Positions 2,871 to 36,561 are shown, counted from the first letter of the stretch. The stretch: DNA of 64,000 nucleotides from Deltaproteobacteria bacterium (GCA_006226565.1 SBGO01000356.1:748-64747); one strand, 5' to 3'. Numbers and translations: made by a program. Notes: a model not told the origin generated them from the letters alone.

Positions 2871-2976
2871 CGGGGCCTCGGGGCGTCTGGACGCGGCGAG
2901 TCTCGCAGAGCCGGCGGTGGGCGTCGACCGCGGCGGGGTCGTGCTACGGTCGCGGGCGAGGGAAAAGGAGAGGGCG

Positions 2977-10468: not shown

Positions 10469-10802
10469 CGTTGAACCTCCTACAGCTCACGAGAACTAGC
10501 TGTACAAGCCGCCGACCGCTGGGTCACCGGGCGCTAAGTAGGCACTTGCCCTGAGGACCTAGCACCCACCAAGCAAGACCCCGCGCGCAAGACGGCGCTC
10601 AGAACGATGCACTGCGGCCTTGGCGATAGCGCGGGGCGGAGCGGTGGGGGGGCTTCGGCTCATGACGAGGGCGCCGAGGCCCCCGAGGCCGTTCGTGCAC
10701 AGGGACCCCTTGTGCGGGCTGCGTCTCGACCCGTCCCACCAATCACACCCTTGCGATACGCGTTCAAGCTCGACATCCTCGGTTCAGACCGAGGAGGAAC
10801 TC

Positions 10803-17413: not shown

Positions 17414-17440
17414 GCCTTCTCGCCTCCGTCGTGGAGTTCG

Positions 17441-19494: not shown

Positions 19495-20035
19495 CTTCGG
19501 ACCTAGCCCCCCTCGGCCTTTGGTGCTCAATCTGATCCTCGTTGTACTCTGGTTCTGTCGGGTTCCGTCCGTGAAGGCGGTACCCTCGCGGACGTTGGCA
19601 TCTTGGTGCTGACGCGCTCGGCGCTCGCAGCTGCGAGGCGACCACGAGACGCGCTCGCGTGTCAACGACCCGGAGTCTCCGAAATGTTACCAACAAGCGG
19701 ATGGCTGGTCGCTTTCGACCTCCAATCTGGTCGGATCGGGACCAGGCCAGCGGGAGCGAGTGTTGGGGCTGCATCCAGCGGGACCCGACGTTCTCGGACC
19801 AAGGGGGTCACGGTGCTGGCTGCAGCGACCTAGAGCCAAGCATCGCGATCGCGGAGCGAAGACGTTGAACCGTGGCGGGGGTGTCGGAGCGTCAGTACGT
19901 CGGAGACTCGGATTATGGGAACGACATCGAAGCCGTGCGGGAATGAGTTCCGCGAGCGTGCCGTGCTACGCTGATTGAAGACTCGGCTCCGCAAGCTCCA
20001 TGCCGACACAGCTGCCAGTAGCTGTCCTGGCTCGG

Positions 20036-20806
20036 TCATGACATTGCCGACACGGCCTTCAGCGTGACGGCGAGCTCGTACTCGAGCAACATGACATCGG
20101 CGACCTGAGACACCGCGTAGCGGATCCGGTCCGTGATGTGACCGGCGACGATGACTCCCCGGACCGGCTTGCCAACGGCCAGATGGTGGACGACCCAGCC
20201 CTTGTAGCGAAGCACCTGGCCGACGACCGCGTCCGGCCCCTTGCTGACCTTCAGCTCGATCACAACCAGCCCCTCGTTCGCGTCCTGGGCCAGGATGTCG
20301 ATGCGACCAACGGGCGTGGTGTACTCGACTCCGGCGTTCCCGTCTTCGTCGGCGTATAGGGACAGCCCCGGCTCGATGAGCTCCAAGTGGTCCGCTAGGT
20401 AGTCTCGGAGGTGGGCCTCAGCCGCAAAGATGCCCGACTCCGAAGGCACCGGCTCGGGCGCGTCAATGCGCCGGACCAGGTTGCGGCCATCTTCTTGCTC
20501 GACGATCTCCCAATCGCCGTGCTTCGCGGAATCGAAGAGCTCGAGTTCGCCCCGGGTCGGCCGGAACAGGAAGTCGTACTGGAGGTTCGCCTTCCGGGGC
20601 TTCTTGTTCTCCGGGTAGTGGACCCGCGAAGCGTGGTTCACCGTGCAAACGATGATCTGACAGGAGATGGTGTTCCGGTTGGTATCCGGCCAGCGCTCGA
20701 GGATCCAGTTTCGTACGGCGACGTTTGTCGTGGACGGTCCCAACTCGTCCACGGCGCGGCGGATCATCTGCCAGACGTAGGGGCGGTCTTCCGCGTTGGC
20801 GGTCAT
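20036..20806 (-). CDS. PD-(D/E)xK nuclease, NucS/DUF91-like C-terminal fold (GRIDILAQD...VVIELKVSKG)
   Basis: Nuclease motif in translation; AGGAGAG RBS. Confidence 0.65.
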   Translation of the reverse strand: MTANAEDRPYVWQMIRRAVDELGPSTTNVAVRNWILERWPDTNRNTISCQIIVCTVNHASRVHYPENKKPRKANLQYDFLFRPTRGELELFDSAKHGDWEIVEQEDGRNLVRRIDAPEPVPSESGIFAAEAHLRDYLADHLELIEPGLSLYADEDGNAGVEYTTPVGRIDILAQDANEGLVVIELKVSKGPDAVVGQVLRYKGWVVHHLAVGKPVRGVIVAGHITDRIRYAVSQVADVMLLEYELAVTLKAVSAMS

Positions 20807-20871
20807 AGGGAACTCTCCTGGGAACTCGTCGCCTCACCGGGATAGGCATCTCATCCTTCGCAAGGAGATGG

Positions 20872-21321
20872 TCAGTCGTCCTTCCATGCGAGGCGCTTCG
20901 GCTCCTCCTCGCCCCTCATCACGCGAACGAGGAAGTCGTAGTCGTCCTCCGTGACCTCGATGATGCCGCCCTTGCAGTAGATGTAGTTCGACGGTGTCGT
21001 CTTCATTTCGCTCGGGAAGCACGACAGCGACCACAGAGTGTCGGCCACCGGGCGGGCGAAGCCGGACTCGGTGAAGGCCACATTGCAGCGGTGCTCATAG
21101 ACCTTGCCGCCCGAGAAGATGGGCGTGTCGTCCACGAAGGTCTCGCCAGCAACCGTGCCGATGCCGTCGAGCTGCTGCACCCGCGAGAGGTACGCGAGGA
21201 ACGGGTCGCCGACGGAGAGCTCCTTCAAGAGCTTTCGGGCGCCTGTGCGGACGCCGATGGTGCGGTGCGCCTTCACGTCCCCGTACGTCTCGGGGCGGAA
21301 CATCATCAGCCAGTATTTCAT
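20872..21321 (-). CDS. EVE (PUA-like) domain protein
   Basis: Start MKYWLMMFRPETY with GGAGGG RBS; EVE-typical N-terminal motif; ~149 aa. Confidence 0.65.
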   Translation of the reverse strand: MKYWLMMFRPETYGDVKAHRTIGVRTGARKLLKELSVGDPFLAYLSRVQQLDGIGTVAGETFVDDTPIFSGGKVYEHRCNVAFTESGFARPVADTLWSLSCFPSEMKTTPSNYIYCKGGIIEVTEDDYDFLVRVMRGEEEPKRLAWKDD

Positions 21322-21443
21322 GTCGTCCCTCCGTCGAATTGGCGCCTCAGCAACGCCATGCACAGTGAGTCAGCCTAGACGGCGTTGTGCTTCGCCTCTG
21401 GAGCTGCAGGATGCCGGGTCCCGAGTCTCTCGCCGTACGCACA

Positions 21444-22187
21444 TCAGAGACCGCCTCGTTCAAGTTCTACGAAGTCGGTGTCCAGGCCCTGTCGATGCAC
21501 TCGGAACTGCGACATGCCGCGGATGTGGCTTGAGTTCACGTCGACCTCAAAGGGGAACATGGCAGGATGCCCGGTCAGCTGGTCAATGGGGACCGACGCA
21601 TCCTCGGCGTCCACGAGAAGCGCCTCGAGGAGCAGGGTGCCGACTGCTGGCCCGACCTTCCTTCGCCATGGCGCAGCCTCATACATCCCGCGAATGGCCG
21701 TGTCCCGGAGGACGCCCCACTGGACCATCGAGCGGACGATCCGCTGCCCGGCACGTACAAGTGTCGAGCGGCCACCCCACGCGCCAACGAGGCGCCGCGT
21801 CAGGTGCGCGAGTGTGAAGCTTCCTTGGAGGGTCAGGAGACGCCCGATCGCTGCGGCGGCGTCCGTGAACACCGGGTAGGTACCGACCATCATCGCCCAA
21901 TGGATGGCGATGCGCGCGTCCGGCTCGCTCCCCGCGAGCTGAGCTATCGCCCTCACACGGAGCGGCGCTGCCGGTTCGGGGACTTCACCCCAGATGTGAT
22001 TCAAGACGGTGACCGTCTTGCCTCGAGCACTGTTGGACTTGTCTCCGCTCACGACGCCGTCGAGCAGATTCCAGAGGTAGGCGCGCATGTCGTCGTTCGG
22101 TGCGCCCGCAGCGGCTTGAGCTGCGGCAGCATCAAGCCAATCGAGATCGATTCGTCGATCGAAGCCGATGTTCGCCCGTCGGTTCAT
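21444..22187 (-). CDS. Hypothetical protein, positional equivalent of BrxA in type-3 BREX (247 aa)
   Basis: ATGA overlap with pglZ stop; assignment by position/size only. Confidence 0.5.
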   Translation of the reverse strand: MNRRANIGFDRRIDLDWLDAAAAQAAAGAPNDDMRAYLWNLLDGVVSGDKSNSARGKTVTVLNHIWGEVPEPAAPLRVRAIAQLAGSEPDARIAIHWAMMVGTYPVFTDAAAAIGRLLTLQGSFTLAHLTRRLVGAWGGRSTLVRAGQRIVRSMVQWGVLRDTAIRGMYEAAPWRRKVGPAVGTLLLEALLVDAEDASVPIDQLTGHPAMFPFEVDVNSSHIRGMSQFRVHRQGLDTDFVELERGGL

Positions 22188-24214
22188 CGGGACTCCGTGA
22201 TGCGCACAAACGGGACCATGACCTCTTCTAGCGCGATGCCGCCGTGGCTCACAGATTCCTTGCCCTCCGGCATGAAGCAGGCACCGTACGGCGCGATCAG
22301 CGGGAAGTAGTCATGAGGAAGGCCGATCTGCGGCCACTCGACAGCGTCGGGGTACATGGGCGCGGTGTTGTCGCGGAAGTGCTTGTCGCGGAAGATGTGC
22401 GCGCGCTCACCGCGCTGCTGCGCTGTGGCTCCGACATCGGGCTTCCCGAAGCCTCGTCCGAAAACGTTGCCGTGGTCCGCCGTGATGAACACAGCAAACC
22501 CGCGTTGAATCAGTCCATCCACAAGGCCGGCGAGCTGCCCGGTTCGAGCCCACACTTCCACGAGACCGTGCAGCCCAGGCGTCCCAAGCCCGACTTGGTG
22601 CATGTTCTGGTCGATGAGGCCAATCACCGCGCCGATGACGCGGACAGCGTAGTCGTCGGCAGCGCGCAAGATGTCCGCCTCGATGGGCTCGAACGACTCC
22701 TTCTTCCCCTGAGGCTTCAGATACTGGATGGCCCGCTCCGGTAGACCTCGGTCCTGCCAGAAGTTGAACCAGTGCTGAAGCTCTCGGTGCGTGCCCTCGA
22801 TACTGGTTGCGAACTCCATGGGAACGCGTCCAGAGAAGATAGCTTGACGACCGATCTGCGTCAGAGTCGGGATCCAACTGAAGATCGCGTGCTCGTCGAC
22901 GTGGTGGCGTTCGAGAGTAGGCCGCAGGATGCGCCACTGGTCGATCGCCATTCCGTCGATGACGAGGAGCGCCACACGCTCTGTGCCGGCCTGTCCGAGG
23001 TGGTGCGCGAGGTAGTGCGGCACCTGATGTCCGAGCACCGGATGCGGTAGGTAGGGAAGCGTGGACATCGGCCCGAAGCGCCGCAGGAGCCATGTGGAGA
23101 ACGCCGCCTGCACACGGTCGACAAACGCGACCGCGTCTGCTTCGCTCTGGGGATCTCGGTCCGGGAAGGTCTGCCATCGCAGGCGCACCCAGGTGCCCCA
23201 TCGAAGGCTATAGTCCTGCCAATCCTGGTGCGTCGCGCAGTCGGCGTCAGGGAGCGTCGAGTCGAGCTCGCCGAGCAGGTGGATGAACCGGCCGTCGGCG
23301 CTCGACGCGGGTGACCCCGCAATGCCGACACCAAACCAGCGGTCGTCGTCGATCGGGCGTACGGCGGCCGTTGGTTCGAGCAGCCCCTCGACGAAGAGGT
23401 TGTCCATGTAGACGCGAACGTCGTCGTGGTCGAACGGCAGATTCATGGGCCCCGAGATGCTCGGGCCCGCCGGCTCGCGTCCAACCTCCACCTCCAAACC
23501 CTGGCCTTGGAGGAAGCGCGGCCACCGCTCACCCAAGAACGCCAGGAACGCCTCGCGATCCGGCACGATCCGTTCGAGTGGCCACGACCGCCACTTCTCG
23601 TCTCGAGTGAGAATCTCGATGAAGCGCGCGTCGAGGCCATCTGGAAGGGTCTGCGATCGATAGTGGCGACGAAGCAGAACACGAAGAAGGTCAGCCGGTT
23701 GCTTGATCAGCTCGGGAGCAATCTCGAAGACATGGCGCAGTATGAAGTCTCGGGTGCTATTGGTTCCGAGGTTGTCAGGGTCGGCCTTGTCTAGCGCGCG
23801 GGCGAGCGCATCGAAATGCTGCGGGTCCAGCTCCGCTACAGCGTTGGGTGCCAGCGCCGGGAAGATGTGAACGAGGCTGAACGACAATACGCGTCCGTTC
23901 TCCTGAGCCTCTTCGAGCAGGTCGTGCGGGATATGCTTCGGATCACCATGGTCAGTGCGAATCACCACGACAAGGTGCGTGGCTTCACCTCGGTCCCAGT
24001 GCTGCCGGAAGCGGCTCTCGTAGGCGTAGCGGAAGGCGATCGGGTCCCCGAAGGTGATGAGCTCGAACCCGCGGGCAGCCAAGCGCTCGACAACGCCGGG
24101 CTCAGTGAGTAGCTCATCGGGGTCGCTCACCACAGTGAGCCTGCCAGCCTTGGCGCTGGCCTCGCTGAAGTGCTGCAGGATTGGACCGCGCCAGCCGTCG
24201 CGTCGCTGCGTCAC
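22184..24214 (-). CDS. pglZ: PglZ-domain protein (alkaline-phosphatase superfamily; ITADHGN motif)
   Basis: PglZ motifs; GTGA overlap with upstream helicase gene. Confidence 0.85.
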   Translation of the reverse strand: MTQRRDGWRGPILQHFSEASAKAGRLTVVSDPDELLTEPGVVERLAARGFELITFGDPIAFRYAYESRFRQHWDRGEATHLVVVIRTDHGDPKHIPHDLLEEAQENGRVLSFSLVHIFPALAPNAVAELDPQHFDALARALDKADPDNLGTNSTRDFILRHVFEIAPELIKQPADLLRVLLRRHYRSQTLPDGLDARFIEILTRDEKWRSWPLERIVPDREAFLAFLGERWPRFLQGQGLEVEVGREPAGPSISGPMNLPFDHDDVRVYMDNLFVEGLLEPTAAVRPIDDDRWFGVGIAGSPASSADGRFIHLLGELDSTLPDADCATHQDWQDYSLRWGTWVRLRWQTFPDRDPQSEADAVAFVDRVQAAFSTWLLRRFGPMSTLPYLPHPVLGHQVPHYLAHHLGQAGTERVALLVIDGMAIDQWRILRPTLERHHVDEHAIFSWIPTLTQIGRQAIFSGRVPMEFATSIEGTHRELQHWFNFWQDRGLPERAIQYLKPQGKKESFEPIEADILRAADDYAVRVIGAVIGLIDQNMHQVGLGTPGLHGLVEVWARTGQLAGLVDGLIQRGFAVFITADHGNVFGRGFGKPDVGATAQQRGERAHIFRDKHFRDNTAPMYPDAVEWPQIGLPHDYFPLIAPYGACFMPEGKESVSHGGIALEEVMVPFVRITESR

Positions 24215-27042
24215 GCCGCACCTCCGGTTCGTGCGACCGCGACGAGGAGCATGGGGCTCAGCTCGGGAAGGCCGTGTTCACGGGCCTCGCGGTCGCGCCG
24301 CCAGGCGGCCTCTTCGTCTGCGAGTTGTGCCAGCCGGTGATTGCGGACCTGCGGCAGCCCGAGTCGCTCGATCGCGCGCCGCCGAGCGGAGAAGGCGACG
24401 TTCATCTTCCGCGATTCTTTCGCCAGGCGCTCGCGGTGCCGCTGCAGAAGCTCGTGGAATGCAGCCTTCCCGTGCTGCTCCGCAGCAGTTCGGGACTGCT
24501 CGAACGCCTGCTCCGCTGCTCCGTCCGTCGTCGCAGCCGTTGGCAGCACCTCGATCCCTTCGACTAGCTCGACCAAGCGGTCCCACACCACGCGCGCCGT
24601 GGGGCCGAGCGTCTGTCCTTCCGGCGTGACGAAGATCGGTAGAACGCGCTGCTCCCGGCCGTCGAAAGTCGAGAGAGACACGCGCCACAAGGACCAGAAG
24701 CCGGCGACCTTGTCCGATACACCAGGGATCACGAGCTGCGCGACTCGCATTCCGGGCGCATACGGCGGAACCCGCGTGGTGAGGCCACGAACGCGCGGAT
24801 CCTCGATGGTGAGGAGCGTCTTGCTGGGATCAGCGGATGCCGAACGACTGAACGACGCTCCGGCAGTCCTCCCCCCGTCGGGCCACGAGATGTCGTAGAC
24901 TCCTGGCGAGTCGCTTCTGATGGAGGCTCCACGGGCGGCCTGCGAGCGCAACCACGCGAGGGTCATCCGTTCGGTCCAGAACGGCATCCGGTGCCCAGCG
25001 ACCTTCTTGGCTGCCGATGGGTCCAGCTCCTCGGTGGCGGCCAGCACCGACGAGCCTTCGCGAGCCGATCGTGCTCGCGCTCGAATGGACTCGGCCAGCG
25101 CTTCCGCTCGCGCCTCGGCTTCCTCGGGCGAAAGCACTGCACCGAAATAGAGCTGCTCGAAGTCGACACCACCCTCCTCGGAGTCCAGCACGTCGGAGAG
25201 CTTGTCTACCCCGAACTCCTCGAGGATGCGCTGGAGCTTCTCCTCGAGAACCTCACGCACCCGCAGCTCGACCGTGTCCTCAAGGGCGAAGTTGAGCGCC
25301 CGTACGATGTGCTTCTGCCCGATGCGGTCGACGCGCCCGATTCGCTGCTCCAGCTTCATCGGATTCCACGGTAGGTCGTAGTTCACGATGACGTGGCAGA
25401 ACTGTAGGTTGAGGCCCTCGCCGCCGGCGTCGGTCGAGATGAGCACCTGCGCGTCTCCGGCGAAGGCGTGCTGCACCGACTTGCGAGCCTCGAGGTCCAT
25501 CGAGCCGTTGAGGCAAGCCACTGTGTAGCCACGTTGCTCCAGAAACTCGGCGAGCATCGCCTGCGTCGGAACGAACTCCGTGAAAACGAGCACCTTGAGC
25601 GACGGGTCGTTTTCTTCGCGTTGCAGCTTCTGTATCCACGCGAGAAGCGTCTCGGCCTTGCCGTCTGGAGCCCGCGCCTCGCATCGCCGGGCGGCTGAGA
25701 GGAGGAGCTCGACCTCGGCGCGTTCACTCTTCAACCCCTTCAGCCTGCTCTGAAGGAGCGATTCCATCTGCTCTTGCCCGTCGAGCTCGACCCAGTCGTC
25801 GCCCACCTCCTCGCCGAAGAGCGAGAGCTGCCCGGATGGAAGCTCGAGCACCTCGAGCCGCCGCTCGAGCGCCGTTCGAATCGCGGCCGTGCTCGATGTC
25901 ACCAACCGCTGCATCAGGATCATCAAGAACCCGATCGCGTTACGTTTCTCGCGCACCGCCTGGTTGTAGCCTTCGCGCACATACTCTGTGACGGCATCGT
26001 ACAGCGCCCGCTGCTCATGGCGCGATGCGTCCCACTCCACCGAGACGATCTGGGTGAAGCGGGGCAGGAAGAGGGGCTTGCCGTCAGCGTCGATGGCGCG
26101 CCGCTTCTCGGTCCGGATGACATACGGCGCTACGTTCTCGCGGGTGACTGACTCGTCGTCGGGAAGCGCATCTGCGTCGAGGAACGCCACCAGCCGACGG
26201 AATGCGTCGGTCTTGCCTTGGTGCGGAGTCGCTGAGAGCAGGAGCAAGTACGGCGCTGCCTGGGCGAGCGCGTCACCGAGCCGATAGCGGGCGACCTGCT
26301 CCGTGCTGCCCCCAAGCCGATGGGCCTCGTCGATGATCACCAGGTCCCAGCCGGCGGACACAACGTCTTCGAAGCGCTCGCGGTTGTAACGAGCTGTCTG
26401 CTCTCGCGACCAACCGCGGCGGGCATCCATCGGTTTGATCGAATCGAGCGGACAGACGACCTGATCGTGCAGTCGCCAGAGGTTCTCCTTCTCGTCGACA
26501 CCAGACAGCTGCCGCCAAGCCTGGAAGTTGCCAGGCTGCACGAGCCGGAAATCCTCGCTGAAGTGGGTCTCCATCTCGCTGACCCACTGGCTCGTGAGTC
26601 CCGCAGGCGCCACGACGAGGATACGGCGTGCCAAGCCTCGAACCTTGAGCTCCCGCAGGATGAGACCCGCCTCGATCGTCTTGCCGAGGCCGACCTCGTC
26701 GGCGAGCAGGTACCGGACGCGATCTCCCGACATCGCCCGCTGGAGCGCGTAGAGCTGGTGCGGAAGTGGGATGACCGAACCTTCGAGCGGCGCCACCAGT
26801 GCGTCATGCTCGAGTGCGTCGAGGATACGCGCAGCCGCGGCAACGTAGCTGAGCTGATTCAGCGATGGCGGATCCGCATCCGCGAGCGGCTTGATGCGAC
26901 TTCGGTGCAAGCGCACGACGGAATCGCGTCGGGCGAGCCACACGTGCGCCGTCTCCGTACCCCACACGGAGTCCACCGTGATGACGCGGCACGGCTCGTC
27001 GTGGTCGATGCTGAAGCACCAGTCGCCCCCAGCCACGCCCAT
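24211..27042 (-). CDS. brxHII: SNF2-family helicase (BrxHII-like)
   Basis: SNF2_N motifs GLGKTIEA, VIIDEAHRLGG, LLLSATPHQGK; helicase-C DLPWNPMKLEQRIGRVDRIGQ. Confidence 0.85.
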   Translation of the reverse strand: MGVAGGDWCFSIDHDEPCRVITVDSVWGTETAHVWLARRDSVVRLHRSRIKPLADADPPSLNQLSYVAAAARILDALEHDALVAPLEGSVIPLPHQLYALQRAMSGDRVRYLLADEVGLGKTIEAGLILRELKVRGLARRILVVAPAGLTSQWVSEMETHFSEDFRLVQPGNFQAWRQLSGVDEKENLWRLHDQVVCPLDSIKPMDARRGWSREQTARYNRERFEDVVSAGWDLVIIDEAHRLGGSTEQVARYRLGDALAQAAPYLLLLSATPHQGKTDAFRRLVAFLDADALPDDESVTRENVAPYVIRTEKRRAIDADGKPLFLPRFTQIVSVEWDASRHEQRALYDAVTEYVREGYNQAVREKRNAIGFLMILMQRLVTSSTAAIRTALERRLEVLELPSGQLSLFGEEVGDDWVELDGQEQMESLLQSRLKGLKSERAEVELLLSAARRCEARAPDGKAETLLAWIQKLQREENDPSLKVLVFTEFVPTQAMLAEFLEQRGYTVACLNGSMDLEARKSVQHAFAGDAQVLISTDAGGEGLNLQFCHVIVNYDLPWNPMKLEQRIGRVDRIGQKHIVRALNFALEDTVELRVREVLEEKLQRILEEFGVDKLSDVLDSEEGGVDFEQLYFGAVLSPEEAEARAEALAESIRARARSAREGSSVLAATEELDPSAAKKVAGHRMPFWTERMTLAWLRSQAARGASIRSDSPGVYDISWPDGGRTAGASFSRSASADPSKTLLTIEDPRVRGLTTRVPPYAPGMRVAQLVIPGVSDKVAGFWSLWRVSLSTFDGREQRVLPIFVTPEGQTLGPTARVVWDRLVELVEGIEVLPTAATTDGAAEQAFEQSRTAAEQHGKAAFHELLQRHRERLAKESRKMNVAFSARRRAIERLGLPQVRNHRLAQLADEEAAWRRDREAREHGLPELSPMLLVAVARTGGAA

Positions 27043-27050
27043 CGTTCACC

Positions 27051-29828
27051 TCACTCGTCCCCGAGGCGCGTTAGTGCAACATCATAGTAGAGCAACAGTT
27101 GCTCATCCTCGTCCAATAGGCGTTGCGGCAATCGACTGGAGATCGTCTTGATGAGCTTGTAGTCACCTCGTTTCATTGCCGCCGAGAACCCGAGGCGAAT
27201 CGCCTCGCTCCTCACCTCTTTGAGCCGCTTGCTCCCCTGCCGATAGGCATCGAATTCACGCAATAACTGCCGGTTCCGAACCTTCTCGATATCCGCTTGA
27301 TTCTCCGGGTTTGGCACGTACCACCGATTCGTCGCGACGCCCTGCAGCCGAGAATCACTCGTCAACACTGCCCCGGTTGCGTCCACTTCACACTGCTCGA
27401 CCAGAGGACGGAGCGCGGAAGACTGGCGCAAATAGCCGGCGATCTGCGCCGCGATCTTCTCGGTGCTGTCGTGGCAGAGGAAGTTCTCTCTCAATAGCTC
27501 AGACAACTCCAGCGGCCGTTCGTACTTTTGCCACTGGCGAATCTCCCGTATGAAGTCGGGCGAAATCTCCTGATACGTCTGCGGTTTGCGCTGCAGCCGA
27601 TCTCGCAGCCATCGGATGGCACTGGCTTCATCGACTATGAATAGTGATTCTTGTCCGCCATACGAGACCTTCATTCTCGCGCGATCGTACTCAAGAACCT
27701 GAGCGGAAAGGAAGTACATCGAGCCGCGACTGGGGTACCGCTGCGCGAGCCGCTGGAGGAATTCGGCACTTGAGAGGTCGACCGGCACGCCAGCACTTAG
27801 TGATGCCGCTACCCAGCGATCGAATAGAATCGGTGCGGTTCGCTCTTGCACGTCGACCAACTCCCCCCCAATCATTTGGACGACAGGCAGTCGTGCCAGA
27901 TGCTCGTTGATGAAGTCCCACACCGCTTCCGGTCGTTGCGCCGCGCTTCGCACCAGCCCGGCGGTCGCCAGAGAGGGCTTGTAGCACGAGATGACCAGGT
28001 CCTGCTTGACCGCGGTGGCCGTTGTTACGGCGCGGTAGCCCTTGTGCTCCTTCTCCAACGCGGCGACGCTGGCGACGATGAATCCTGCACGTTGAATGGC
28101 AACCTGAATCGCGTTCCATACTTTCGCCTTTGTGTTTGAGAACTCAACCGTCATCCAGGCACCGGGCTTGAGTACTCGGAAACACTCCCGAAAGGACTGC
28201 TCCATCAGGTGTTGATAGGACATGAGCGTCTTGCTGCGAGCTCGGTTCTCGACAGCTTCGAGTTCGTGTGCCGTGCTGCATTGCAGCCACGATTCCCAGA
28301 GGACATTCAGCTCGGAATACTGAATGTTCGCCCCGAAAGGCGGATCTGTGAAGATGTAGTCGACTGAGTTAGCGGGGACCGGCACATCCGTCGCCGAGCC
28401 CGTTGTCACAAAGGAGCTGTGGCTGGGCGCCGTGTGCGGCACAGAGGAGATGCGAAGTCGGAATCGTTCTATGAGATTTGTCTCGATGCTCAGCGAACTC
28501 ACATAGAGCGTTCCCTGGAGGGTCTGCCCGATAACGCCGCCGCGTCTCTGGAAGTAATTCGAGGTCAGGAGTCGGTTCAGCCTCGTGCCCCAAGCGTGCG
28601 TGGAGGTGAACCACATGCCCAGCGCGGGAACTACATCAAGTTGCGCCCAAATGAGCTCCCTCAGTTTGGACAGCACGTGGAGATTTCGCCGGGTGTAGAA
28701 GTGATGGACGTGGGTCAAACCCATGGGGTCGTTTCGCCGTGTTTCCCCTCCCTCTGGCATTCGAGCCACTGGATACCACGAGCGAAGTCGCAGGCTCTCG
28801 ACTCGCCGCAGCGTATCAAGATCCCGTGCGTCAGGCATCTTCTCCAGTCGGCCTGGAATGCCATCCACGACGTAGTTGATGAGAACAGGGACTTGCTTTG
28901 CCTGCCGAACTGTCTCGCCGATCCCATCGTCTACGACAGTCTCGAAGACTCGTTCCAGATGTGCCTTGGTTACCGAGACTCCGCACTTGCTGCACGCGAA
29001 CTCGTCCTTCACGCCACCCGCTTCTGCATCCACCGCCACATCCCAAAAGACGATCTCGTGTGCGCATTCCGGGCACGAGAAGACATCGCTCCACAGCACG
29101 TACTGCACCGTTCCATCGCGTCCATCTGTGTGCTTGGTCTGGTACATCCATGAGAATTCTGCCTCCGCCTGGTTCAGAATCCGAGTCGCGCACTCTTCGA
29201 ACTGTAGCCTGTCAGTTGGTGTGGTGAACTTGTGTGCTATGAACGTGGCCGCAGGAGCAAGGTCCCCGAGAATTGCTTTGCGTTCACCCCACTCGATGGG
29301 ACCAAGGCCACTCTCCCGAAACTCGCTCTCAACTTGGAGCTTGAAGTCCGCATCGACCCCTCCGCAGGCCGATGCGGCTACTCCGGTCATGCCGGTTCCT
29401 GCGAACGGATCGAAAACCACGTCGCCAGGAGATGAGTAGTGGAGAAGGAACCTCATGATCGCCTTGTGAGGTACCTTGGTGTGGTAGGAATGAGCGTTGT
29501 AGATTGGGTCGTTCTTGCCCTCTTTCACGTCGGCAACTAGGGGGGCGACGTGTTTAGGGGCAGCCTTGGTGTAGATCGTCGCCGAGGGAAGGAATGGGTT
29601 GGGGCACGCGGTGAAGTACGGCGGATCCGATAGCTGGAGAATTGCTACATCAGTTGCGACTGGGAACCCGGGGGTCTTACGGAACTCCGGGTCCTGGAGC
29701 TTCTCTCGGAGCTGGTTGAGGAAGTGCGCTCGACGCGCGTCATCGTTCTCAAAGGTCATCCCGAGGCACTCGACGGGGCCGTCGTACGCTTGAGGTTTCG
29801 CAAAGCCAAGATCCTGCTGATTACTCAT
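27051..29828 (-). CDS. pglXI: N6-adenine DNA methyltransferase, PglXI-like (beta-class order: DPPY then DPFAGTGMTG; second DPPF motif downstream)
   Basis: MTase motifs IV and I read in translation; 925 aa; lower GC3. Confidence 0.8.
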   Translation of the reverse strand: MSNQQDLGFAKPQAYDGPVECLGMTFENDDARRAHFLNQLREKLQDPEFRKTPGFPVATDVAILQLSDPPYFTACPNPFLPSATIYTKAAPKHVAPLVADVKEGKNDPIYNAHSYHTKVPHKAIMRFLLHYSSPGDVVFDPFAGTGMTGVAASACGGVDADFKLQVESEFRESGLGPIEWGERKAILGDLAPAATFIAHKFTTPTDRLQFEECATRILNQAEAEFSWMYQTKHTDGRDGTVQYVLWSDVFSCPECAHEIVFWDVAVDAEAGGVKDEFACSKCGVSVTKAHLERVFETVVDDGIGETVRQAKQVPVLINYVVDGIPGRLEKMPDARDLDTLRRVESLRLRSWYPVARMPEGGETRRNDPMGLTHVHHFYTRRNLHVLSKLRELIWAQLDVVPALGMWFTSTHAWGTRLNRLLTSNYFQRRGGVIGQTLQGTLYVSSLSIETNLIERFRLRISSVPHTAPSHSSFVTTGSATDVPVPANSVDYIFTDPPFGANIQYSELNVLWESWLQCSTAHELEAVENRARSKTLMSYQHLMEQSFRECFRVLKPGAWMTVEFSNTKAKVWNAIQVAIQRAGFIVASVAALEKEHKGYRAVTTATAVKQDLVISCYKPSLATAGLVRSAAQRPEAVWDFINEHLARLPVVQMIGGELVDVQERTAPILFDRWVAASLSAGVPVDLSSAEFLQRLAQRYPSRGSMYFLSAQVLEYDRARMKVSYGGQESLFIVDEASAIRWLRDRLQRKPQTYQEISPDFIREIRQWQKYERPLELSELLRENFLCHDSTEKIAAQIAGYLRQSSALRPLVEQCEVDATGAVLTSDSRLQGVATNRWYVPNPENQADIEKVRNRQLLREFDAYRQGSKRLKEVRSEAIRLGFSAAMKRGDYKLIKTISSRLPQRLLDEDEQLLLYYDVALTRLGDE

Positions 29829-30138
29829 CCCAGATTCGCTCCTAGGTGCTGCACGAGGCGGCGGTCCTTTCAGCCTACTCGACGCGATAGCGGGCGAGCA
29901 CTTCGACCGTCTTGAGGGACGCCGTCACGTGCTCTGATATCGTCCGCCCGACAGGCGAACCGTGCGGTGACGTGCGTAGCCATTCTTGTCAGCGTTGTCG
30001 TAGTACATGAGAAGCTTCTCGTCTTCTTGGGTGCACATTGTCGGGGAGCTTCTCGGCGCCCTTGACGAACGTACCGTCGTCACGTTCCTGCCAGCATGCC
30101 TTTGAAGCCCGCCCGCGCCAGTAGTTCCGGCTGACTAC

Positions 30139-32067
30139 TCATCCCGACTTCTCCCGTAGGTGCGGCGCGAGGCGGTAGTTCGACTCATCGTGATCGATCA
30201 GGACTTGAAGCAGAAGGTAGTCGATCGCCCTGACTAGAGTCTCGAGGTCGAGACCCGTCTGTGACTCAAGGGCCGAGAGGGTAGCATTAGGGGTATTGGC
30301 GACCGCATTCAGCACAGCGGCCTGCTGCTGGGTCAGATGCACTCCTACCCGCGACTTCCATGCACTATCGACGTCGAGTGCGCCTTCCGACCAGTCTAGT
30401 GTTAGTGTGAAGGTGTTCGCGTCCTTGTCGCTCTCAAATACTGGTGACCGTCGCTTGGCCTGCTGGCAGGCGCGGTGGACGGCCCGGATTCCAGAACCCG
30501 ATATCTCGGCAAAGCCGAGCAAACGCAGCGCGCGTGCGATCAGCGGGTTGCGCGATTGGGTCTTGCCTCCGTCGAGCAGCCTATCGGTGGCTACAAGCGA
30601 GTAGCCCATGTTCGAGACGACCATCTTCGTCGCGTGAATCTCGATGTGACCGGCAGCCCTCGTGTCCTGATAGTCTTGGTGCACGGTCTGGTTCACGAAG
30701 ATCTCGCGAAGCGTGAGGTAGTCGAGCGAACCTTCGGTCTTGCGAAGGTCCTCAGGCACCACCTCGCGCATTCCGGTCTGCTCCGCGAAGAATCTCACGG
30801 CACGCTTGAGCGCCTCGAGGATGTTCGCGGATTCGACGATATCTCGCCTCGACGGCCGCATCGTATCGGGGTCAATGACGCGCAGGTCGAGCACGTCCCG
30901 CTGAAGCTCGGATCGAACCGTCGACGGGCGGCCGAAGAGTAGCCTGAGCTGGCGCCGCTCGTCGGGCTCGACGTGACGCCGTCCGTCAAGAAGACGATTG
31001 CCTATCGTCGCATGGGCGTCGGTTGTCCCCGGCTCGAGGAGTCCAGCGAACCACTTGACAGTCGTTGGCTCGAAGGCTTGCCAGTCTACGAGTCCGTCAT
31101 GGCGGCGCCCGCTCTCTTCGATGTGCTCTCGGATGGTCGCCCATTCGCTGGCGAGGTGTCGGCCGTCGATGAGGATGACTGTGTCGGGTACCCGCCGAGC
31201 CCCCGCGAGGAGTTGCCGCGTCGACTCCGCTATGCCGTCGCTCCGGCGCTGCTCACTTCCGTCGAGCGTGCAATAGCGGACCCTCGGTCCGTCAACTGCA
31301 TCAAGGAAGAGCAGCGCGAAGTTCTGCCTGTCTTGATCAATCCCCCAGATCAGCCAGGGGGGAAGCTGAAGGCAACTCTTGTTGACCGCGATGTACGGCG
31401 TGCCGGTCTCCCCGACTCCGCCCGTCTGGTGTTCGACCTTGATGGATTCGGGTGCTGGGTCCGACGACTCACCCATTAGGAGCAGACGACGGACCACGAG
31501 AGCCTCGCGAGTCCACTGCTGGTCTTCGACCACGAAGAGCGGCTTCGAAAGGACTGCTTCGACGCCATCGAGCGCTTCAACGAGGAGCGTCGCAGGGGCC
31601 CTTGTGGCCTCGATCGCGGCGGCCTTGGCCTCATCGAGGTTCCGAAGCTCGTGCCCCAGATCGTTGCGAAGTTCGAGCAGCGAGACCAGCGCGCTATCCG
31701 TCTTGCCTCGCAACGTCTCCTTGTTCCGTTTCGTCACCTTGAAGCCCTGGGCGAGCAAGGGCGCGACGGGATGGTCCCCCTTGGCGCCTGCCACTTCTTG
31801 CACAATCGTCAGGAAGTGGCCGAAGGAGAGGTTGCCGCTTACCTCACTGAGCTTGGCCTCCGTCTCGTCGGCTCGCGACGCAAAGGAAGCCATAGCCACG
31901 GCCGCCAGGTATCGGGTGAGGACCTCGGCGGCCTTGAGACAAGCGTTGACGCGTTCGGCGGCTGTCCGCGCACGCAGGACTCGGCCGCACGCGATCGCTA
32001 CTGGCGTCGGGTAGATGAGGCTGCCACGGCGCAGCGGCCACTGTTCGGCTCCGGACTCTGTCATCAT
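30139..32067 (-). CDS. HATPase_c_4/RecG-C-terminal-like protein (NPLIARALRLLGFAEISGSGIRAV) with C-terminal wHTH and N-terminal region carrying HEPN-like RNDLGHE motif
   Basis: Start MMTESGAEQW overlapping brxC stop (TGATG); domain motifs in translation. Confidence 0.65.
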   Translation of the reverse strand: MMTESGAEQWPLRRGSLIYPTPVAIACGRVLRARTAAERVNACLKAAEVLTRYLAAVAMASFASRADETEAKLSEVSGNLSFGHFLTIVQEVAGAKGDHPVAPLLAQGFKVTKRNKETLRGKTDSALVSLLELRNDLGHELRNLDEAKAAAIEATRAPATLLVEALDGVEAVLSKPLFVVEDQQWTREALVVRRLLLMGESSDPAPESIKVEHQTGGVGETGTPYIAVNKSCLQLPPWLIWGIDQDRQNFALLFLDAVDGPRVRYCTLDGSEQRRSDGIAESTRQLLAGARRVPDTVILIDGRHLASEWATIREHIEESGRRHDGLVDWQAFEPTTVKWFAGLLEPGTTDAHATIGNRLLDGRRHVEPDERRQLRLLFGRPSTVRSELQRDVLDLRVIDPDTMRPSRRDIVESANILEALKRAVRFFAEQTGMREVVPEDLRKTEGSLDYLTLREIFVNQTVHQDYQDTRAAGHIEIHATKMVVSNMGYSLVATDRLLDGGKTQSRNPLIARALRLLGFAEISGSGIRAVHRACQQAKRRSPVFESDKDANTFTLTLDWSEGALDVDSAWKSRVGVHLTQQQAAVLNAVANTPNATLSALESQTGLDLETLVRAIDYLLLQVLIDHDESNYRLAPHLREKSG

Positions 32068-35000
32068 CAGCGCTCCACGACGACGCGCACGCGGTTGGCG
32101 TCCTTGCCCTTGGTCAGGTCGGCGACGAAGGCAGCGAAGCGCTCTCTTAGTTCGTCGACCGTACAAGGGACGCCACCGTCCGTGAGCGCGGAGCGGAGCC
32201 GCGCTTCGGTCAACACGACCTTCTCGAGCCCGCTCAGGATCTCCTGAATGGCCTTCACGAAGGCAGGGCTCACCGGGTCGGGCAGGCTGTTGCTCTTGAG
32301 GAAAGCCTCGACGGCGTCACGACCTTCACCGGCGCCGACGAGATTGATGTTGCCGGACACCGTCGGGTCCTGGAGGTTTGCGAGCAGCGTATTCGTCCAA
32401 TTCTGCACCAGGTCGTCGAGCTCGGCGTCGAGCTGACCGATCCGGTCCCCCGCCTTCGTTCCCCCACGCATCGGATCGGCAGGCTCCTCGACGGGGCGGA
32501 ACGTGCAGTGCGGACAGATGGGATCGGCGTCGAGGTCTTGCTTCGTGAGGGCGAAACACGTCTTCAAGCCGAAGAGCGCGTTCTGGAGGTCGCGCAGCTG
32601 CTGGGTTGGCATCATCTCAACGGTCGAGAGTAGCTGGAGTTGCTTGAGACGAGGATCCTGCCCGAGACGTGCTTTGCGCTGGTCGTCGGTCGCTCCTAGG
32701 CGCGCCTGCGCGTGGCTCTTGAGGTAGGCGTCCTGGTAGGCCGTCTTGAGCTCAGCCAGCGCCTGCCCGAGGGCACGCTGGAAACTCGAATCGGCGCGGT
32801 GCTTCGGGCTCGTGATCTTGGCCATCAGCTCGCCGCGTCGCTCCCGCATCTGGTCCACCCAGGGGTGGCCAGCCTCGAGCACGGCCTCTGCCTTACCCAG
32901 GTAGGATGTCGTTGGCCCGACTTGCTGTACGAGCTCTCCCAGCTCCTCGACCTCGCGCACCTGCGCGAGCCCATGCCGCTGTGCTTGGATGGCGGCAACG
33001 TCGTGCGGGAAGCTCTTCAGCTTTCCGGCCGTGTTGAACGCCTGGAGCGACTCCAGGAAGCGCTTCAGATCGCCGAGGCGCTGCCGCCACTCGGTCTGCT
33101 CCTGCTCCGAGAGGATGGGCTTGCCCCACAGCACCATGTCGGCGACGTGGGCGTGGGCGAGCACCGTCTTGTTGACCAGCTCGGCGACCTTGCCCTGGAG
33201 CTGGGTCACCGCGTCGTCGCGCTTGGCCGGGTTGACGATCAGCCCCTTGGGCACGCCGAGCAGGTCGAAGAGCTCCTGCAGCGCACCGAGCGGTAGGTCG
33301 CGCGGGCGCTCGATGTGCTTGAACTGCGCGACGTCGTTCACCGAGAGCTTCGCGAACTGGTCGATGGCCCCAGCGTCGATCTTCTTCCCAGTGATGCTCA
33401 TGACCACGTCGCCGCTGTGGACGAGCCCGGCCAGGACCACGGCGAGGAACTCCGGCTCGAGCCGGAAGCGGCTCCAGTAGTCGACCCCGGCCTGCTCCTG
33501 AACCAGCTCGGAGCGGTTGAGCACCTGGCCTTCGCCCTTGGCGCCGAGCTGCTCGATGATGTGCTTCGCGTAGCGAGACTCGCGCGGTCGAAGCTGGTCG
33601 CCGTCGAGCATCTCGAGCGCGTCGAGAACAGCGGCGCCGAGCTTGCTCTTCACGCTCCCGGCGATCCACCGCAGGGCATCCTGCGCCGCCTGCCCGCGGT
33701 TCGCTCGGGTGATGGGCGTGTCGAAGATCGGATAGCCGGGCGCGGTGTCGGTGAAGTGGGTGGACAACGACACCGCCGCCGCGACGTCGACGTAGTCCCG
33801 AACGCCGCCGCGCGATGGGGCGCGAGCGAAGAGTGTCTGGAGCGCCTCGCCCAGGCTTCGGGCCTTGCCCTGGTACGTGACCTCGTAGACGGTGGTCAGC
33901 TTCTCCTGCAGCCAGCGGGTCATGGTCCGCAGGTGCTCGAGCGCCTTGTCGTCGTAGACCTTCTTGTTGCTGCCTGACGCGGTGGCCGACAGCTCGCGCG
34001 CCCCGGCGTAGAGCTTGAGCGCGCGGTCGAACTCCTCGTCCCGGTGCGTCAGCCGGAAGAAGACCTCGTCGGGCTTGCGCTCGTCCTTGAAGTACGGCGC
34101 TTCGAACGGCTGGATGAAGTAGATGTAGAAGTCGCGGGGCGGCTGGGCGGTGGAGCGCTCGTTGGGGGCGCCGAAGAAGAGATAGCCACTGCGGCCCGCC
34201 TTGCGCTCGCGCCACTCCAGCTCGTGCTCCCAGATGCGGTAGCCGGAGACGTAGGGCGGCGCCTCTGGGTCTTCGAGCACGACGCGGCGCAGACCGTCGA
34301 AGTAGTAGCGATCGAGTTGGGAGTCGCTCAGCGACTCCGCGCGCTTCTCGATGAGCGAGTCGAAGTCGATGTCCTTCTTGAGGTCGAGGTAGTACTGGCC
34401 GTTCTCGCGATTGTAGGAAAGGAACTGCCCGCTGACCGTCTTCACGATCTCGCGGAGCACGGTCTCGACGACGGTCTTGAGGAACTCTGCGTCGCGTTCC
34501 GGTAGCGGCAGGAGCACGCATAGGTCGTCGCGGAGCTCCTCGGCGGTCGCGCCAATGGGGGCGAAGATGTCGCTGGTCGTCAGCCGGTGTACCGAGAGCG
34601 CATGGATGATGCGTAGCGCGGCTGGGCGGTACTGCGGCCGCGTGAACGCCTGCTGGATGCGCGCTTCGACGACATCGGCTTTCTCGATGACATCGCGGAT
34701 CTCCGGGACCGAGCGGAACGACGGGTTGTCCTTCAGGCTCAGCCAGTACGAGTCGTAGGCGATGAGGCCAGGCTCGTTGGCGGGTACGGCCTCCGTGAGC
34801 ATCCGGCGGATGGCCGCGCTCAACGTCTTGAGCACCTCGCGCTTCTCTGCGACGTACACCCGCTCGAAGGTGTCGAGGTAGGCCGGGTGCACCGGGAAGA
34901 GGCGGACGAATTCGTCCATCCGCTCGTTCATCGACCCGTAGAGCGGCGCGAACTGGGTCAGATGCTCGCGCACCAGCGCCTGCTGTCTCGCGTCCTTCTT

Positions 35001-35777
35001 GAGAAGCCGCTCGGCGACGACGTGAGCCACATCCTCGCGAGCGATGCGCATCTGCTCGAAGCGGTCCCTGACGCGTCGGAGGCTGTCCGCAGCGAACTGG
35101 AAGCGCGGGTTGTCGAAGAGGCTCTCCTGGACGCCTGCGATGAAGCGGAAGCGCGAGCCTTTGGCGAACTCTCCGACCGCTCGCAGGAAGTTCAGGTTGC
35201 GCATCAGCTCCTGCTCTCGGTTGGAGCGGAGGTAGTCGAGCAGCTCGTCGAGGACGAAGAGGAGCCCCTTGTCGGGGAACTTCGCCGTGAACGCCGCCAT
35301 CATGGAAGCGAACACGTCCTTGTGGTTCCTGACCTGGTCCTCGGGTGGAACGTCGAAGCGCACGCCATGTTCCGACAGGTGGTCCTGGAGCGTCTCCATG
35401 ACGAACTGGCGAAGCGGCATCGCCGAGTTGATTTCCGCGCGGATGACGAAGAAGCGCCCGGCGACGAGCGATGCCTTGTCCGCCACCTTGGGGTTTGTGA
35501 GCGCGTTCGCGAGGTCGGCGTGCTCCGCGATGGCGGAGATGACCGCCATGAGGTGCGACTTGCCGGTGCCGTAGTTGCCGACGACGAGAAGGCCCTTGTT
35601 GTCGGCCGGGGTCTCGAACTGAAGTTGCGGGAGCACGAGGTCTGCGAGCTGCTCGCCCATCCGGTCGGAGATGACGAAGGTCTCGACGAGACGACGAGCG
35701 CTTGCCGCGCGGTCGGCTTCGCGGAGCTGAACGACGGTCTCGATGGGGTCGAACTGAATGAGGTCCGCGTACTTCAT
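32067..35777 (-). CDS. brxC: BREX BrxC/PglY large P-loop ATPase
   Basis: N-terminal BrxC-like region with GNYGTGKSHLMAVISAI Walker A; 1236 aa; ATGA overlap with brxF. Confidence 0.85.
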   Translation of the reverse strand: MKYADLIQFDPIETVVQLREADRAASARRLVETFVISDRMGEQLADLVLPQLQFETPADNKGLLVVGNYGTGKSHLMAVISAIAEHADLANALTNPKVADKASLVAGRFFVIRAEINSAMPLRQFVMETLQDHLSEHGVRFDVPPEDQVRNHKDVFASMMAAFTAKFPDKGLLFVLDELLDYLRSNREQELMRNLNFLRAVGEFAKGSRFRFIAGVQESLFDNPRFQFAADSLRRVRDRFEQMRIAREDVAHVVAERLLKKDARQQALVREHLTQFAPLYGSMNERMDEFVRLFPVHPAYLDTFERVYVAEKREVLKTLSAAIRRMLTEAVPANEPGLIAYDSYWLSLKDNPSFRSVPEIRDVIEKADVVEARIQQAFTRPQYRPAALRIIHALSVHRLTTSDIFAPIGATAEELRDDLCVLLPLPERDAEFLKTVVETVLREIVKTVSGQFLSYNRENGQYYLDLKKDIDFDSLIEKRAESLSDSQLDRYYFDGLRRVVLEDPEAPPYVSGYRIWEHELEWRERKAGRSGYLFFGAPNERSTAQPPRDFYIYFIQPFEAPYFKDERKPDEVFFRLTHRDEEFDRALKLYAGARELSATASGSNKKVYDDKALEHLRTMTRWLQEKLTTVYEVTYQGKARSLGEALQTLFARAPSRGGVRDYVDVAAAVSLSTHFTDTAPGYPIFDTPITRANRGQAAQDALRWIAGSVKSKLGAAVLDALEMLDGDQLRPRESRYAKHIIEQLGAKGEGQVLNRSELVQEQAGVDYWSRFRLEPEFLAVVLAGLVHSGDVVMSITGKKIDAGAIDQFAKLSVNDVAQFKHIERPRDLPLGALQELFDLLGVPKGLIVNPAKRDDAVTQLQGKVAELVNKTVLAHAHVADMVLWGKPILSEQEQTEWRQRLGDLKRFLESLQAFNTAGKLKSFPHDVAAIQAQRHGLAQVREVEELGELVQQVGPTTSYLGKAEAVLEAGHPWVDQMRERRGELMAKITSPKHRADSSFQRALGQALAELKTAYQDAYLKSHAQARLGATDDQRKARLGQDPRLKQLQLLSTVEMMPTQQLRDLQNALFGLKTCFALTKQDLDADPICPHCTFRPVEEPADPMRGGTKAGDRIGQLDAELDDLVQNWTNTLLANLQDPTVSGNINLVGAGEGRDAVEAFLKSNSLPDPVSPAFVKAIQEILSGLEKVVLTEARLRSALTDGGVPCTVDELRERFAAFVADLTKGKDANRVRVVVER

Positions 35778-36286
35778 GCCGAGTGCTCCTGGGTCGCCGT
35801 CGTCCCGCTGTTGCCGGGGGGGCCGCTGGAAACGACGAGCGCCTGAGGTTGGTCGTAGCGTCGGAATTCGGGATGGTCGGGAGCCGCGTACGTCAGCAAC
35901 GAGCCCATGTATGCACCGCGCCACGCTGTCACGATGGTGCGGTTGCGCGAGAGGCTCTGAAGGAGGCGTAGCGGATCCTGCTTCAGGTCGGGGTGAAAGA
36001 GCATCTCGATGTTGTCGAGGAGGACGGTGTCGCCGGCCTGTTCCTGGACGATGTCATCGACGAGCCTCGCGACCCGAAGCGCACGCTGCTTCACTGTGAG
36101 CTCGAGCAACCGCTCCGAGAGCGCGAGGTTGATATTCACGAGCGGCCAGCTGTTCGCGCTGTGCAAGTCGCGGAACGCGCTGGTCTTTCCAGAGCGTGGT
36201 GGACCGGCGACGATGACGAGCCGATGGTAGAGCTGACTCGCCTTCTCGACTTGCTCAGCGACTAGGTGTGAAAGCGGCGGCGCCAT
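35774..36286 (-). CDS. brxF: Small P-loop ATPase, BrxF-like
   Basis: Start MAPPLSHLV with AGGAGG RBS; Walker A AGPPRSGKTS. Confidence 0.65.
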   Translation of the reverse strand: MAPPLSHLVAEQVEKASQLYHRLVIVAGPPRSGKTSAFRDLHSANSWPLVNINLALSERLLELTVKQRALRVARLVDDIVQEQAGDTVLLDNIEMLFHPDLKQDPLRLLQSLSRNRTIVTAWRGAYMGSLLTYAAPDHPEFRRYDQPQALVVSSGPPGNSGTTATQEHSA

Positions 36287-36561
36287 GCAGCCTCCTGGTG
36301 TGCCCTGACAGAGGGCGAGATCGCTGCTGGGCGGGGATACGGCGCGGGTTCGCGCCATCGCCGCGACACGTCGTCCGGCTGTCGCATGGGCTCAGGTGGT
36401 GTCCTCACATCTCGCTGTCCACAATCCATCGCAGGCCGTTCTCCGACGCTGGCGACCGTTAGTCTCTATCAATCTGTACCGGCTCACTGTCAACCGAGCC
36501 CGTGAACTGTTCCGGGTCCTTCGAAGACTCTGAGCGTTGGCATGGCTCTGACCATGCGAAC

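Follow-up and report, generated by a model that had tools for sequence, protein, structure and literature searches.

A standalone EVE-domain gene and a DUF7669-NucS_C nuclease gene behind a type 3 BREX operon in a deltaproteobacterial contig

In diverse archaea, standalone EVE proteins recur as partners of an operon that encodes a COG1743 methylase, a DUF499 ATPase and a SWI2/SNF2 helicase-nuclease (Bell, Wolf and Koonin 2020; PMC7641849). In the same study standalone EVE proteins were also found partnered with restriction-modification (RM) systems of type I, and the EVE protein was proposed to single out foreign DNA that bears modifications, which the helicase-nuclease would then restrict. 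The COG1743-DUF499-SWI2/SNF2 operon is the system designated Hma in PADLOC, and is also named BR. According to a 2026 survey (PMC12839542), three components of type 3 bacteriophage exclusion (BREX) systems, the ATPase BrxC, the methylase PglXI and the SNF2 helicase BrxHII, have homologs in the DUF499 BR systems, and PD-(D/E)xK restriction endonucleases are the commonest auxiliary nucleases beside BREX and BR loci. That survey also cites an earlier case of BREX combined with type IV restriction, BrxU/GmrSD, which accompanies BREX-1 (Picton et al. 2021). An association of EVE with BREX was found in neither PMC7641849 nor PMC12839542; in the main text of the latter EVE comes up only in a citation of Bell et al., and its supplements, as far as searched, lack the terms EVE, NucS, DUF91, PUA and ASCH. 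Here we describe a stretch of 64,000 nucleotides (nt) from a Deltaproteobacteria bacterium (GCA_006226565.1, SBGO01000356.1:748-64747; hereafter the window), in which a complete BREX-3 operon is followed on the same strand by a gene for a standalone EVE-domain protein and a gene for a nuclease with a NucS_C-type PD-(D/E)xK domain.

An earlier, sequence-only reading of the window had taken the two genes as a split pair of modified-base reader and nuclease appended to the BREX operon. Both open reading frames (ORFs) that it proposed were found, the domain assignments of both proteins hold, and the position at the operon tail is correct, with brxA directly upstream and the BREX-3 set complete. 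The pairing itself is not conserved: the nuclease gene was absent from all seven other contexts of the EVE gene, and the EVE gene from all of about 16 other contexts of the nuclease gene. On this evidence the two genes are probably separate accessory genes at the BREX-3 tail, an EVE sensor for the upstream system and an autonomous nuclease, rather than a dedicated two-gene restriction system.

The EVE and nuclease proteins

The EVE gene starts 122 base pairs (bp) downstream of the brxA stop codon and is preceded by a Shine-Dalgarno-like element (Table 1); a similar GACGGAGG leader stands ahead of the EVE homologs in two other contexts, L001 and L004. The protein matches the Pfam EVE profile PF01878 with 28.9 bits (cut-off 23, E value 1.3e-6), over profile positions 1-87 of 145 only. 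An AlphaFold2 (AF2) model, computed with 15 aligned close homologs as input, has a predicted local distance difference test (pLDDT) value of 66 and a predicted template modeling (pTM) score of 0.68, which is of moderate confidence, residues 93-116 being poorly modeled. All Foldseek matches of the model are PUA-like readers, 69 of them at E <= 1e-3, and the top match is PH1033 (E 9e-9, TM score 0.63-0.66). The others include MJECL36, PSPTO5229 (2EVE), human THYN1 with DNA containing 5-methylcytosine (5mC), YTH readers of N6-methyladenine (m6A) and the EVE-HNH restriction enzyme VcaM4I, the TM scores ranging over ~0.6-0.66. The EVE family profile also finds PH1033 by sequence (E 1.7e-5). The assignment of the 149-residue protein as a standalone EVE (PUA-like) domain is confirmed at the level of sequence profile and predicted fold. 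Lack of a PUA/EVE fold in the predicted structure, named in the sequence-only reading as its refuting condition, was checked for and not observed.

The ratio of nonsynonymous to synonymous substitution rates (dN/dS) of the EVE gene against eight homologs is 0.14-0.31, indicating a real gene under purifying selection. The subfamily is small. It comprises 15 clusters of close homologs, 60-100% identical, in a word-indexed search, and 82 representatives (at 50% identity) with E <= 1e-3 among 1.84 billion proteins. No matches were obtained on phages by tblastn, and none on plasmids. A scan of positions 19400-22400 revealed no promoter-like and no minus-strand terminator-like site between brxA, the EVE gene and the nuclease gene.

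The nuclease gene lies 65 bp downstream of the EVE gene and has its own Shine-Dalgarno-like element. Its 256-residue product combines an N-terminal DUF7669 domain with a C-terminal NucS_C-type catalytic domain (Table 1). In an alignment with Pyrococcus abyssi NucS and with EndoMS, residues D170, E184, K186, Q197 and Y201 coincide with the catalytic residues, and all five are invariant among 32 nuclease homologs. The AF2 model (pLDDT 90) matches EndoMS/NucS structures (5GKE and 2VLD, E ~1e-7) as well as the nuclease domains of Can2/Card1. The AF2 secondary structure of the DUF7669 domain, three helices and short strands, is winged-helix-like, and residues N57, H58, S60, R61 and D78 of this domain are invariant in the same 32 homologs; judged from the model, the domain is probably DNA-binding. 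No mention of DUF7669 was found in the literature searched. The PADLOC profile PDC-S02 was matched over positions 174-305 of 308 only, corresponding to the nuclease domain in the C-terminal 130 residues (E 2e-21).

Two named assignments of the nuclease were considered and rejected. A true NucS/EndoMS protein is excluded by the DUF7669 domain in the N-terminal position and by NCBIfam NucS equivalog scores (58.7 and 45.1) that fall far short of the respective cut-offs (216 and 252), and Shedu by the lack of an SduA match in PADLOC and of a DUF4263 match in Pfam at E <= 0.01. By profile and model, the 256-residue protein is a NucS_C-type nuclease with an intact predicted active site, not NucS. 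DUF7669-NucS_C proteins form a large, uncharacterised set of solitary nucleases, for which the label 'NucS' currently assigned by annotation pipelines is misleading.

Genomic contexts and possible roles

Besides the window, seven further distinct contexts of EVE homologs 60-86% identical to the window protein were collected, with three EVE loci contributed by a metagenome scan. Seven of these eight contexts (window counted) show the EVE gene close behind, and in the same direction as, the final gene of a BREX or Hma/DUF499 system, at distances of -4 to 137 bp. The preceding systems are BREX of type 1, of type 3 and of a BrxHI-containing type, or Hma/DUF499. The gene immediately upstream is brxA of BREX-3 in the window and a methyltransferase of the HmaB/PglXI family in L001, while in both L003 and L028 it is the C-terminal part of HmaC. 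In L004 it is BrxHI (E 1e-190), the stop codon of which overlaps the EVE start by 4 nt. HmaB and HmaC precede the EVE gene in L007/L008, where Septu lies at a greater distance upstream and the genes downstream include a Gabija-like pair, and the genes upstream in L006 could not be annotated. In L002 (positions 2112-3276) the order is brxL of BREX-1, a full-length standalone MrcB_N/DUF3578 protein (215 residues, E 7e-46) whose start overlaps the brxL stop, and the EVE homolog, i.e. two nuclease-less readers of modified DNA in tandem at a BREX tail.

Copies of the EVE gene from different systems share 80-85% identity and intermix in sequence; the gene has therefore moved between systems. The window protein is 82% identical to the copy behind an Hma-type methylase, to that behind BrxL and to that behind BrxHI. 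In an all-versus-all BLAST comparison of the EVE neighborhoods, the only recurrent genes were HmaB, HmaC, the helicase of the BrxHI-like type and EVE itself, the last with alternative-frame shadows; a hidden partner unnamed by Pfam was rejected on the same comparison. No conserved flanking DNA, repeats or cassette boundary were detected around the EVE genes beyond a short leader with a ribosome-binding site (RBS) that is common to L001 and L004. This leader, ~47 nt directly before the EVE start and including a GGAGG RBS, is ~85% identical between L001 (2960-3011) and L004 (1655-1703). Since the upstream genes of the two contexts differ (methylase and BrxHI, respectively), the common leader suggests a small mobile unit of leader and coding sequence.

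The nuclease family has a different distribution. It comprises at least 615 homolog clusters, all with the DUF7669 and NucS_C domains, and was sampled in about 16 distinct contexts (21 loci, 264 kb), 10 loci having been obtained from a genome-collection scan with a single-sequence query. These contexts include housekeeping neighborhoods, a PIN/HEPN toxin-antitoxin cluster and eight loci in metagenome-assembled genomes (MAGs). Some copies lie beside a gene for a mad8-like giant protein, or beside an insertion sequence (IS) gene of the IS1-like type and ZacA/PLD-like genes. Homologs 30-45% identical occur on three plasmids, where the neighbors are Abi and IS genes, a large methylase, or genes of non-homologous end joining and repair. 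A tblastn search of phages gave no nuclease matches. The family is a large one of solitary genes across housekeeping, toxin-antitoxin, IS-rich, plasmid and defence contexts, and the sampled homologs show no enrichment beside BREX.

Three of the nuclease loci merit separate mention. On the Hydrogenophaga plasmid NZ_CP044976.1 (L031, 6274-11350), a GAF protein, a distant nuclease of the DUF7669-NucS type (37% identity) and a DNA methyltransferase of 1176 residues lie in a row, which could represent an RM-like use of the family. In L026 (322-6750), a 67%-identical homolog follows a protein of 1830 residues, the C-terminus of which resembles mad8 of the methylation-associated defence system MADS. 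The homolog in L017 (7995-8779), broken up between two frames, is probably a pseudogene.

Searches with phmmer and BLAST located the window nuclease in none of the seven other EVE contexts, and neither EVE, sought with a narrow and a broad profile, nor the BREX proteins of the window were found in the 21 nuclease loci. An obligate pair of EVE and nuclease was rejected on these results, and the idea of a split pair is not backed by conservation. Fusions of EVE with nucleases were searched for, a check that the sequence-only reading had proposed. Distant EVE relatives (E 1e-4 to 1e-6) are indeed fused to nuclease domains, as in P0215 (EVE-HNH, PADLOC mREase_IV), in P0192, P0189 and P0173 (a domain resembling type II restriction endonucleases, REase_II-like, with the motif IDVIWL...FEVEHTT and a weak PADLOC match to type II restriction endonucleases) and in P0202 (Mrr_cat-DndB/DpdB-AlbA_2). 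Fusions to NucS_C or DUF7669 were not seen among them. The fused proteins place the EVE family among defence readers, without a link to the nuclease of the window. P0192, P0189, P0173 and P0182 share an N-terminal EVE domain and a C-terminal domain absent from Pfam that bears the motif IDVIWL...FEVEHTT(A/S)IYSGLLRM; they are probably an uncatalogued type IV family of EVE-restriction endonuclease proteins.

The ligand, the partners and any defence activity that we infer for the two proteins are as follows. The predicted ligand of the EVE protein is a flipped-out, modified base of a nucleic acid, and its lineage would be a promiscuous operon-tail accessory of methyltransferase-based defence systems. 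The gene has an RBS, lacks a recognisable promoter and in L004 is translationally coupled to the upstream gene; it is probably expressed by read-through together with the upstream defence operon. The protein would then supply the reading of modifications in trans to that system. By analogy with the proposal of Bell et al. for the homologous DUF499-methylase-SNF2 systems, it would most likely flag phage DNA whose base modifications are foreign to the host, for the system's own helicase and effector machinery, and most plausibly extend the system to phages with hypermodified DNA. The nuclease is probably autonomous and presumably binds DNA through its winged-helix-like DUF7669 domain; here it may best be read as island cargo or as an auxiliary nuclease or effector beside BREX.

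Several points weigh against the assignment of the two genes as separate accessories, the EVE protein acting for the upstream system. In the window the two genes are neighbors that run in the same direction with only 65 bp between them, as a functional pair would look. The EVE contexts number eight, several on contigs of 2-4 kb and all from high-GC metagenomes (GC 0.63-0.71); being few, similar in GC and possibly of one lineage, they could owe the association partly to shared ancestry of the islands. In some loci the EVE gene is moreover translationally coupled to downstream genes, namely a gene for a 260-residue protein plus a Gabija-like pair in L005/L008 and an unknown gene for a 587-residue protein in L028; the unit that it serves or is part of may therefore be the downstream one. 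Confidence in the EVE model is moderate, and poor at residues 93-116, with only the N-terminal 60% of the Pfam profile being matched. For the fold of the DUF7669 domain, the structure search gave only a weak match, to the Rok DNA-binding domain at rank 48, and no solved relative was found by sequence.

A more far-reaching proposal is offered tentatively. The standalone EVE lineage might be a portable plug-in of the BREX/Hma superfamily, attached at the 3' end of BREX operons (type 1, type 3 and BrxHI-containing types) and of Hma operons as a modification-sensing input. As part of the same tentative claim, it might either detect hypermodified phage DNA that escapes discrimination by methylation or read the system's own m6A mark, and in the window a NucS-type nuclease, recruited as effector, may stand beside it as well. 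If real, a portable modified-base reader riding on operon tails would offer a tractable handle on the way in which phage DNA is recognised and halted by BREX. An established role of the EVE protein would likewise show whether DNA modifications other than their own methyl mark are sensed by BREX and Hma systems.

Three other explanations were weighed. According to the first, which we consider unlikely, the EVE protein and the DUF7669-NucS_C nuclease form a split, type IV-like, modification-dependent module in which EVE targets the nuclease to modified phage DNA and so backs up BREX. The close spacing of the two co-directional genes, each with its own RBS and with no terminator-like site between them, speaks for such a module, as do the fusions of distant EVE relatives to HNH, REase_II-like and Mrr nucleases and the BrxU/GmrSD precedent for BREX with type IV restriction that the 2026 survey cites. 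A weak PLD-like gene after EVE in L001 and a weak UDG-like gene in L005/L008 hint at a reader with a variable effector; however, these matches are below the Pfam cut-offs, and in L002 and L003 no same-strand gene follows EVE at all. The nuclease, for its part, has an N-terminal domain of its own and is overwhelmingly solitary, and the co-occurrence counts given above (none in seven and none in about 16) also argue against a module.

The second explanation, that both genes are cargo of the island, unrelated in function to BREX and to each other, the EVE gene being a small mobile cassette that lands at operon ends and is expressed by read-through, appears somewhat less probable still. It would account for the end of conservation at the EVE coding sequence and its short leader, for the presence of the same EVE lineage behind at least four kinds of system and for the mosaic character of the island, with its IS66 fragment, DUF927/primase genes and drop in GC. 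Against it, a BREX or Hma/BR gene stands upstream in seven of eight contexts although Septu, Gabija-like and IetA-like genes share the islands, a placement far more specific than random insertion would give, and an independent study, that of archaea by Bell et al. (PMC7641849), came upon the same partnership. Were both genes unrelated passengers, the locus would represent ordinary defence-island mosaicism.

The third, that EVE reads the host's own m6A mark made by PglXI or HmaB for self/non-self discrimination or for regulation of the upstream system, is very improbable: all recurrent partner systems do carry N6-adenine methyltransferases, PUA-like YTH domains that read m6A appear among the structural matches and a YTH-McrB fusion binds DNA with N6-methyladenine (6mA; PMC12707154), but in structure as in sequence the protein is matched best by EVE proper (PH1033, 2EVE, THYN1 with 5mC, VcaM4I) and not by YTH, and most BREX and Hma systems lack such an EVE protein, which is thus not needed for self-recognition.

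The BREX operon and the surrounding island

The BREX-3 operon has the gene order brxF-brxC-[HATPase_c_4/HTH gene]-pglXI-brxHII-pglZ-brxA, with all six BREX-3 genes present and co-directional (Table 1). The inserted gene encodes a 675-residue protein with a HATPase_c_4 domain ('RecG C-terminal'-like, COG2865-type) and a MarR-type helix-turn-helix (HTH) domain, which may be a regulator or sensor within the operon.

The window is part of a high-GC MAG contig. Between ~6000 and 44000, GC falls from ~0.73 to 0.58-0.69, and this stretch is dense in genes of defence and of mobile elements; taken as a whole, it resembles a mobile defence island. Downstream of the nuclease gene, after a gap of ~370-540 bp, follows a Shango-like or BrxD-BrxHI-like module on the strand of the BREX-3 operon. 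It consists, in order, of a 328-residue ORF without annotation, two paralogous BrxD/SngB-like ATPases (413 and 403 residues) and a DEAD-box helicase of the SngC/BrxHI-like type (608 residues). BrxHI also precedes the EVE homolog in L004.

On the plus strand, region 10620-14507 encodes an SF2 helicase (ResIII/Helicase_C; PADLOC PbeA-like) fused to Amidoligase_2, an unusual architecture of 881 residues, and upstream of it an unknown ORF of 413 residues. A 69-residue ORF at 19830-20039 (minus strand) starts with an ATGA overlap on the stop codon of the nuclease gene, has no support from homologs and may be a high-GC artefact. In the high-GC flank, at 52339-62028, very long overlapping ORFs occur on both strands (3229 residues on the plus strand, 1877 on the minus strand).

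Table 1 Features of the window, with positions counted from its first nucleotide.
Feature	Position	Strand	Basis
Standalone EVE-domain gene, 149 residues, predicted modified-base reader	20872..21321	-	Pfam, AF2 and Foldseek, homologs
Shine-Dalgarno-like GGAGGG, 5 nt before the EVE ATG	21327..21332	-	Read from sequence
DUF7669 + NucS_C nuclease gene, 256 residues	20036..20806	-	Pfam, PADLOC, AF2, homologs
Shine-Dalgarno-like AGGAGA, 7 nt before the nuclease ATG	20814..20819	-	Read from sequence
DUF7669 N-terminal domain, residues 11-87	20546..20776	-	Pfam DUF7669, E 5.8e-16
NucS_C-type PD-(D/E)xK catalytic domain, residues 130-228	20123..20419	-	Pfam NucS_C, E 3e-13
Complete type 3 BREX operon	21444..36358	-	Pfam, PADLOC, NCBIfam
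BrxF	36358-35774	-	NCBIfam BREX_3_BrxF, E 6e-53
BrxC/DUF6079	35924-32067	-	PADLOC BrxC, E 0
HATPase_c_4 + HTH gene, between brxC and pglXI	32166-30139	-	
PglXI, N6_N4_Mtase	29828-27051	-	
BrxHII, SNF2 helicase	27042-24211	-	
PglZ, type 3	24214-22184	-	BREX_PglZ_3, E 4e-189
brxA, last core gene of the BREX-3 operon	21444..22187	-	PADLOC BrxA, E 5.8e-59
Shango-like or BrxD-BrxHI-like module	14607-19665	-	
DUF927 and DnaG-Zn-ribbon primase-like genes, within the low-GC stretch	7195-10264		
IS66-type fragment, within the low-GC stretch	37077-37757		

Comparison with known systems

Like the standalone EVE proteins of Bell et al., the window protein is a small, EVE-only, co-directional protein that ends a methylase-based, RM-like operon, and its close homologs lie directly behind HmaC or HmaB (L003, L007, L028 and L001). 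Unlike those proteins, which come from diverse archaea, it belongs to a tight bacterial, high-GC lineage found on BREX-3, BREX-1 and BrxHI-containing BREX as well as on Hma. The reader fold is the same as in the type IV enzymes that combine EVE with a nuclease or with McrB (VcaM4I, EVE-HNH; EVE-McrB). In contrast to these enzymes, the window EVE is unfused and has no conserved nuclease partner, its neighbor being of the NucS_C type with an N-terminal domain of its own.

The C-terminal PD-(D/E)xK domain of the nuclease has the same D / E-x-K / Q / Y constellation as NucS/EndoMS. The two differ in that DUF7669 replaces the N-terminal dimerisation and mismatch-binding domain of NucS, and in that the contexts of the window family are those of mobile or solitary genes and not of a conserved repair locus. 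The protein joins a C-terminal nuclease to an N-terminal domain of the variable kind in one polypeptide and lies next to a BREX locus, and so resembles the auxiliary or back-up PD-(D/E)xK nucleases beside BREX and BR loci (PMC12839542), PDC-S02 and the single-gene 'sensor + nuclease' systems of the Shedu type, although it leaves the N-terminal part of the PDC-S02 profile unmatched. In concept, the locus is also like the BrxU/GmrSD islands, in which a modification-sensing component appended to BREX covers phages with modified DNA. In BrxU, ParB and HNH form one enzyme whose activity has been demonstrated, whereas the window reader carries no nuclease domain and is known here from sequence and model.

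The locus fits two known patterns, a standalone EVE protein on a BREX-related operon and a PD-(D/E)xK nuclease beside BREX. The new point is a modest and incremental one, namely that one bacterial EVE lineage serves BREX-1, BREX-3, BrxHI-containing BREX and Hma.

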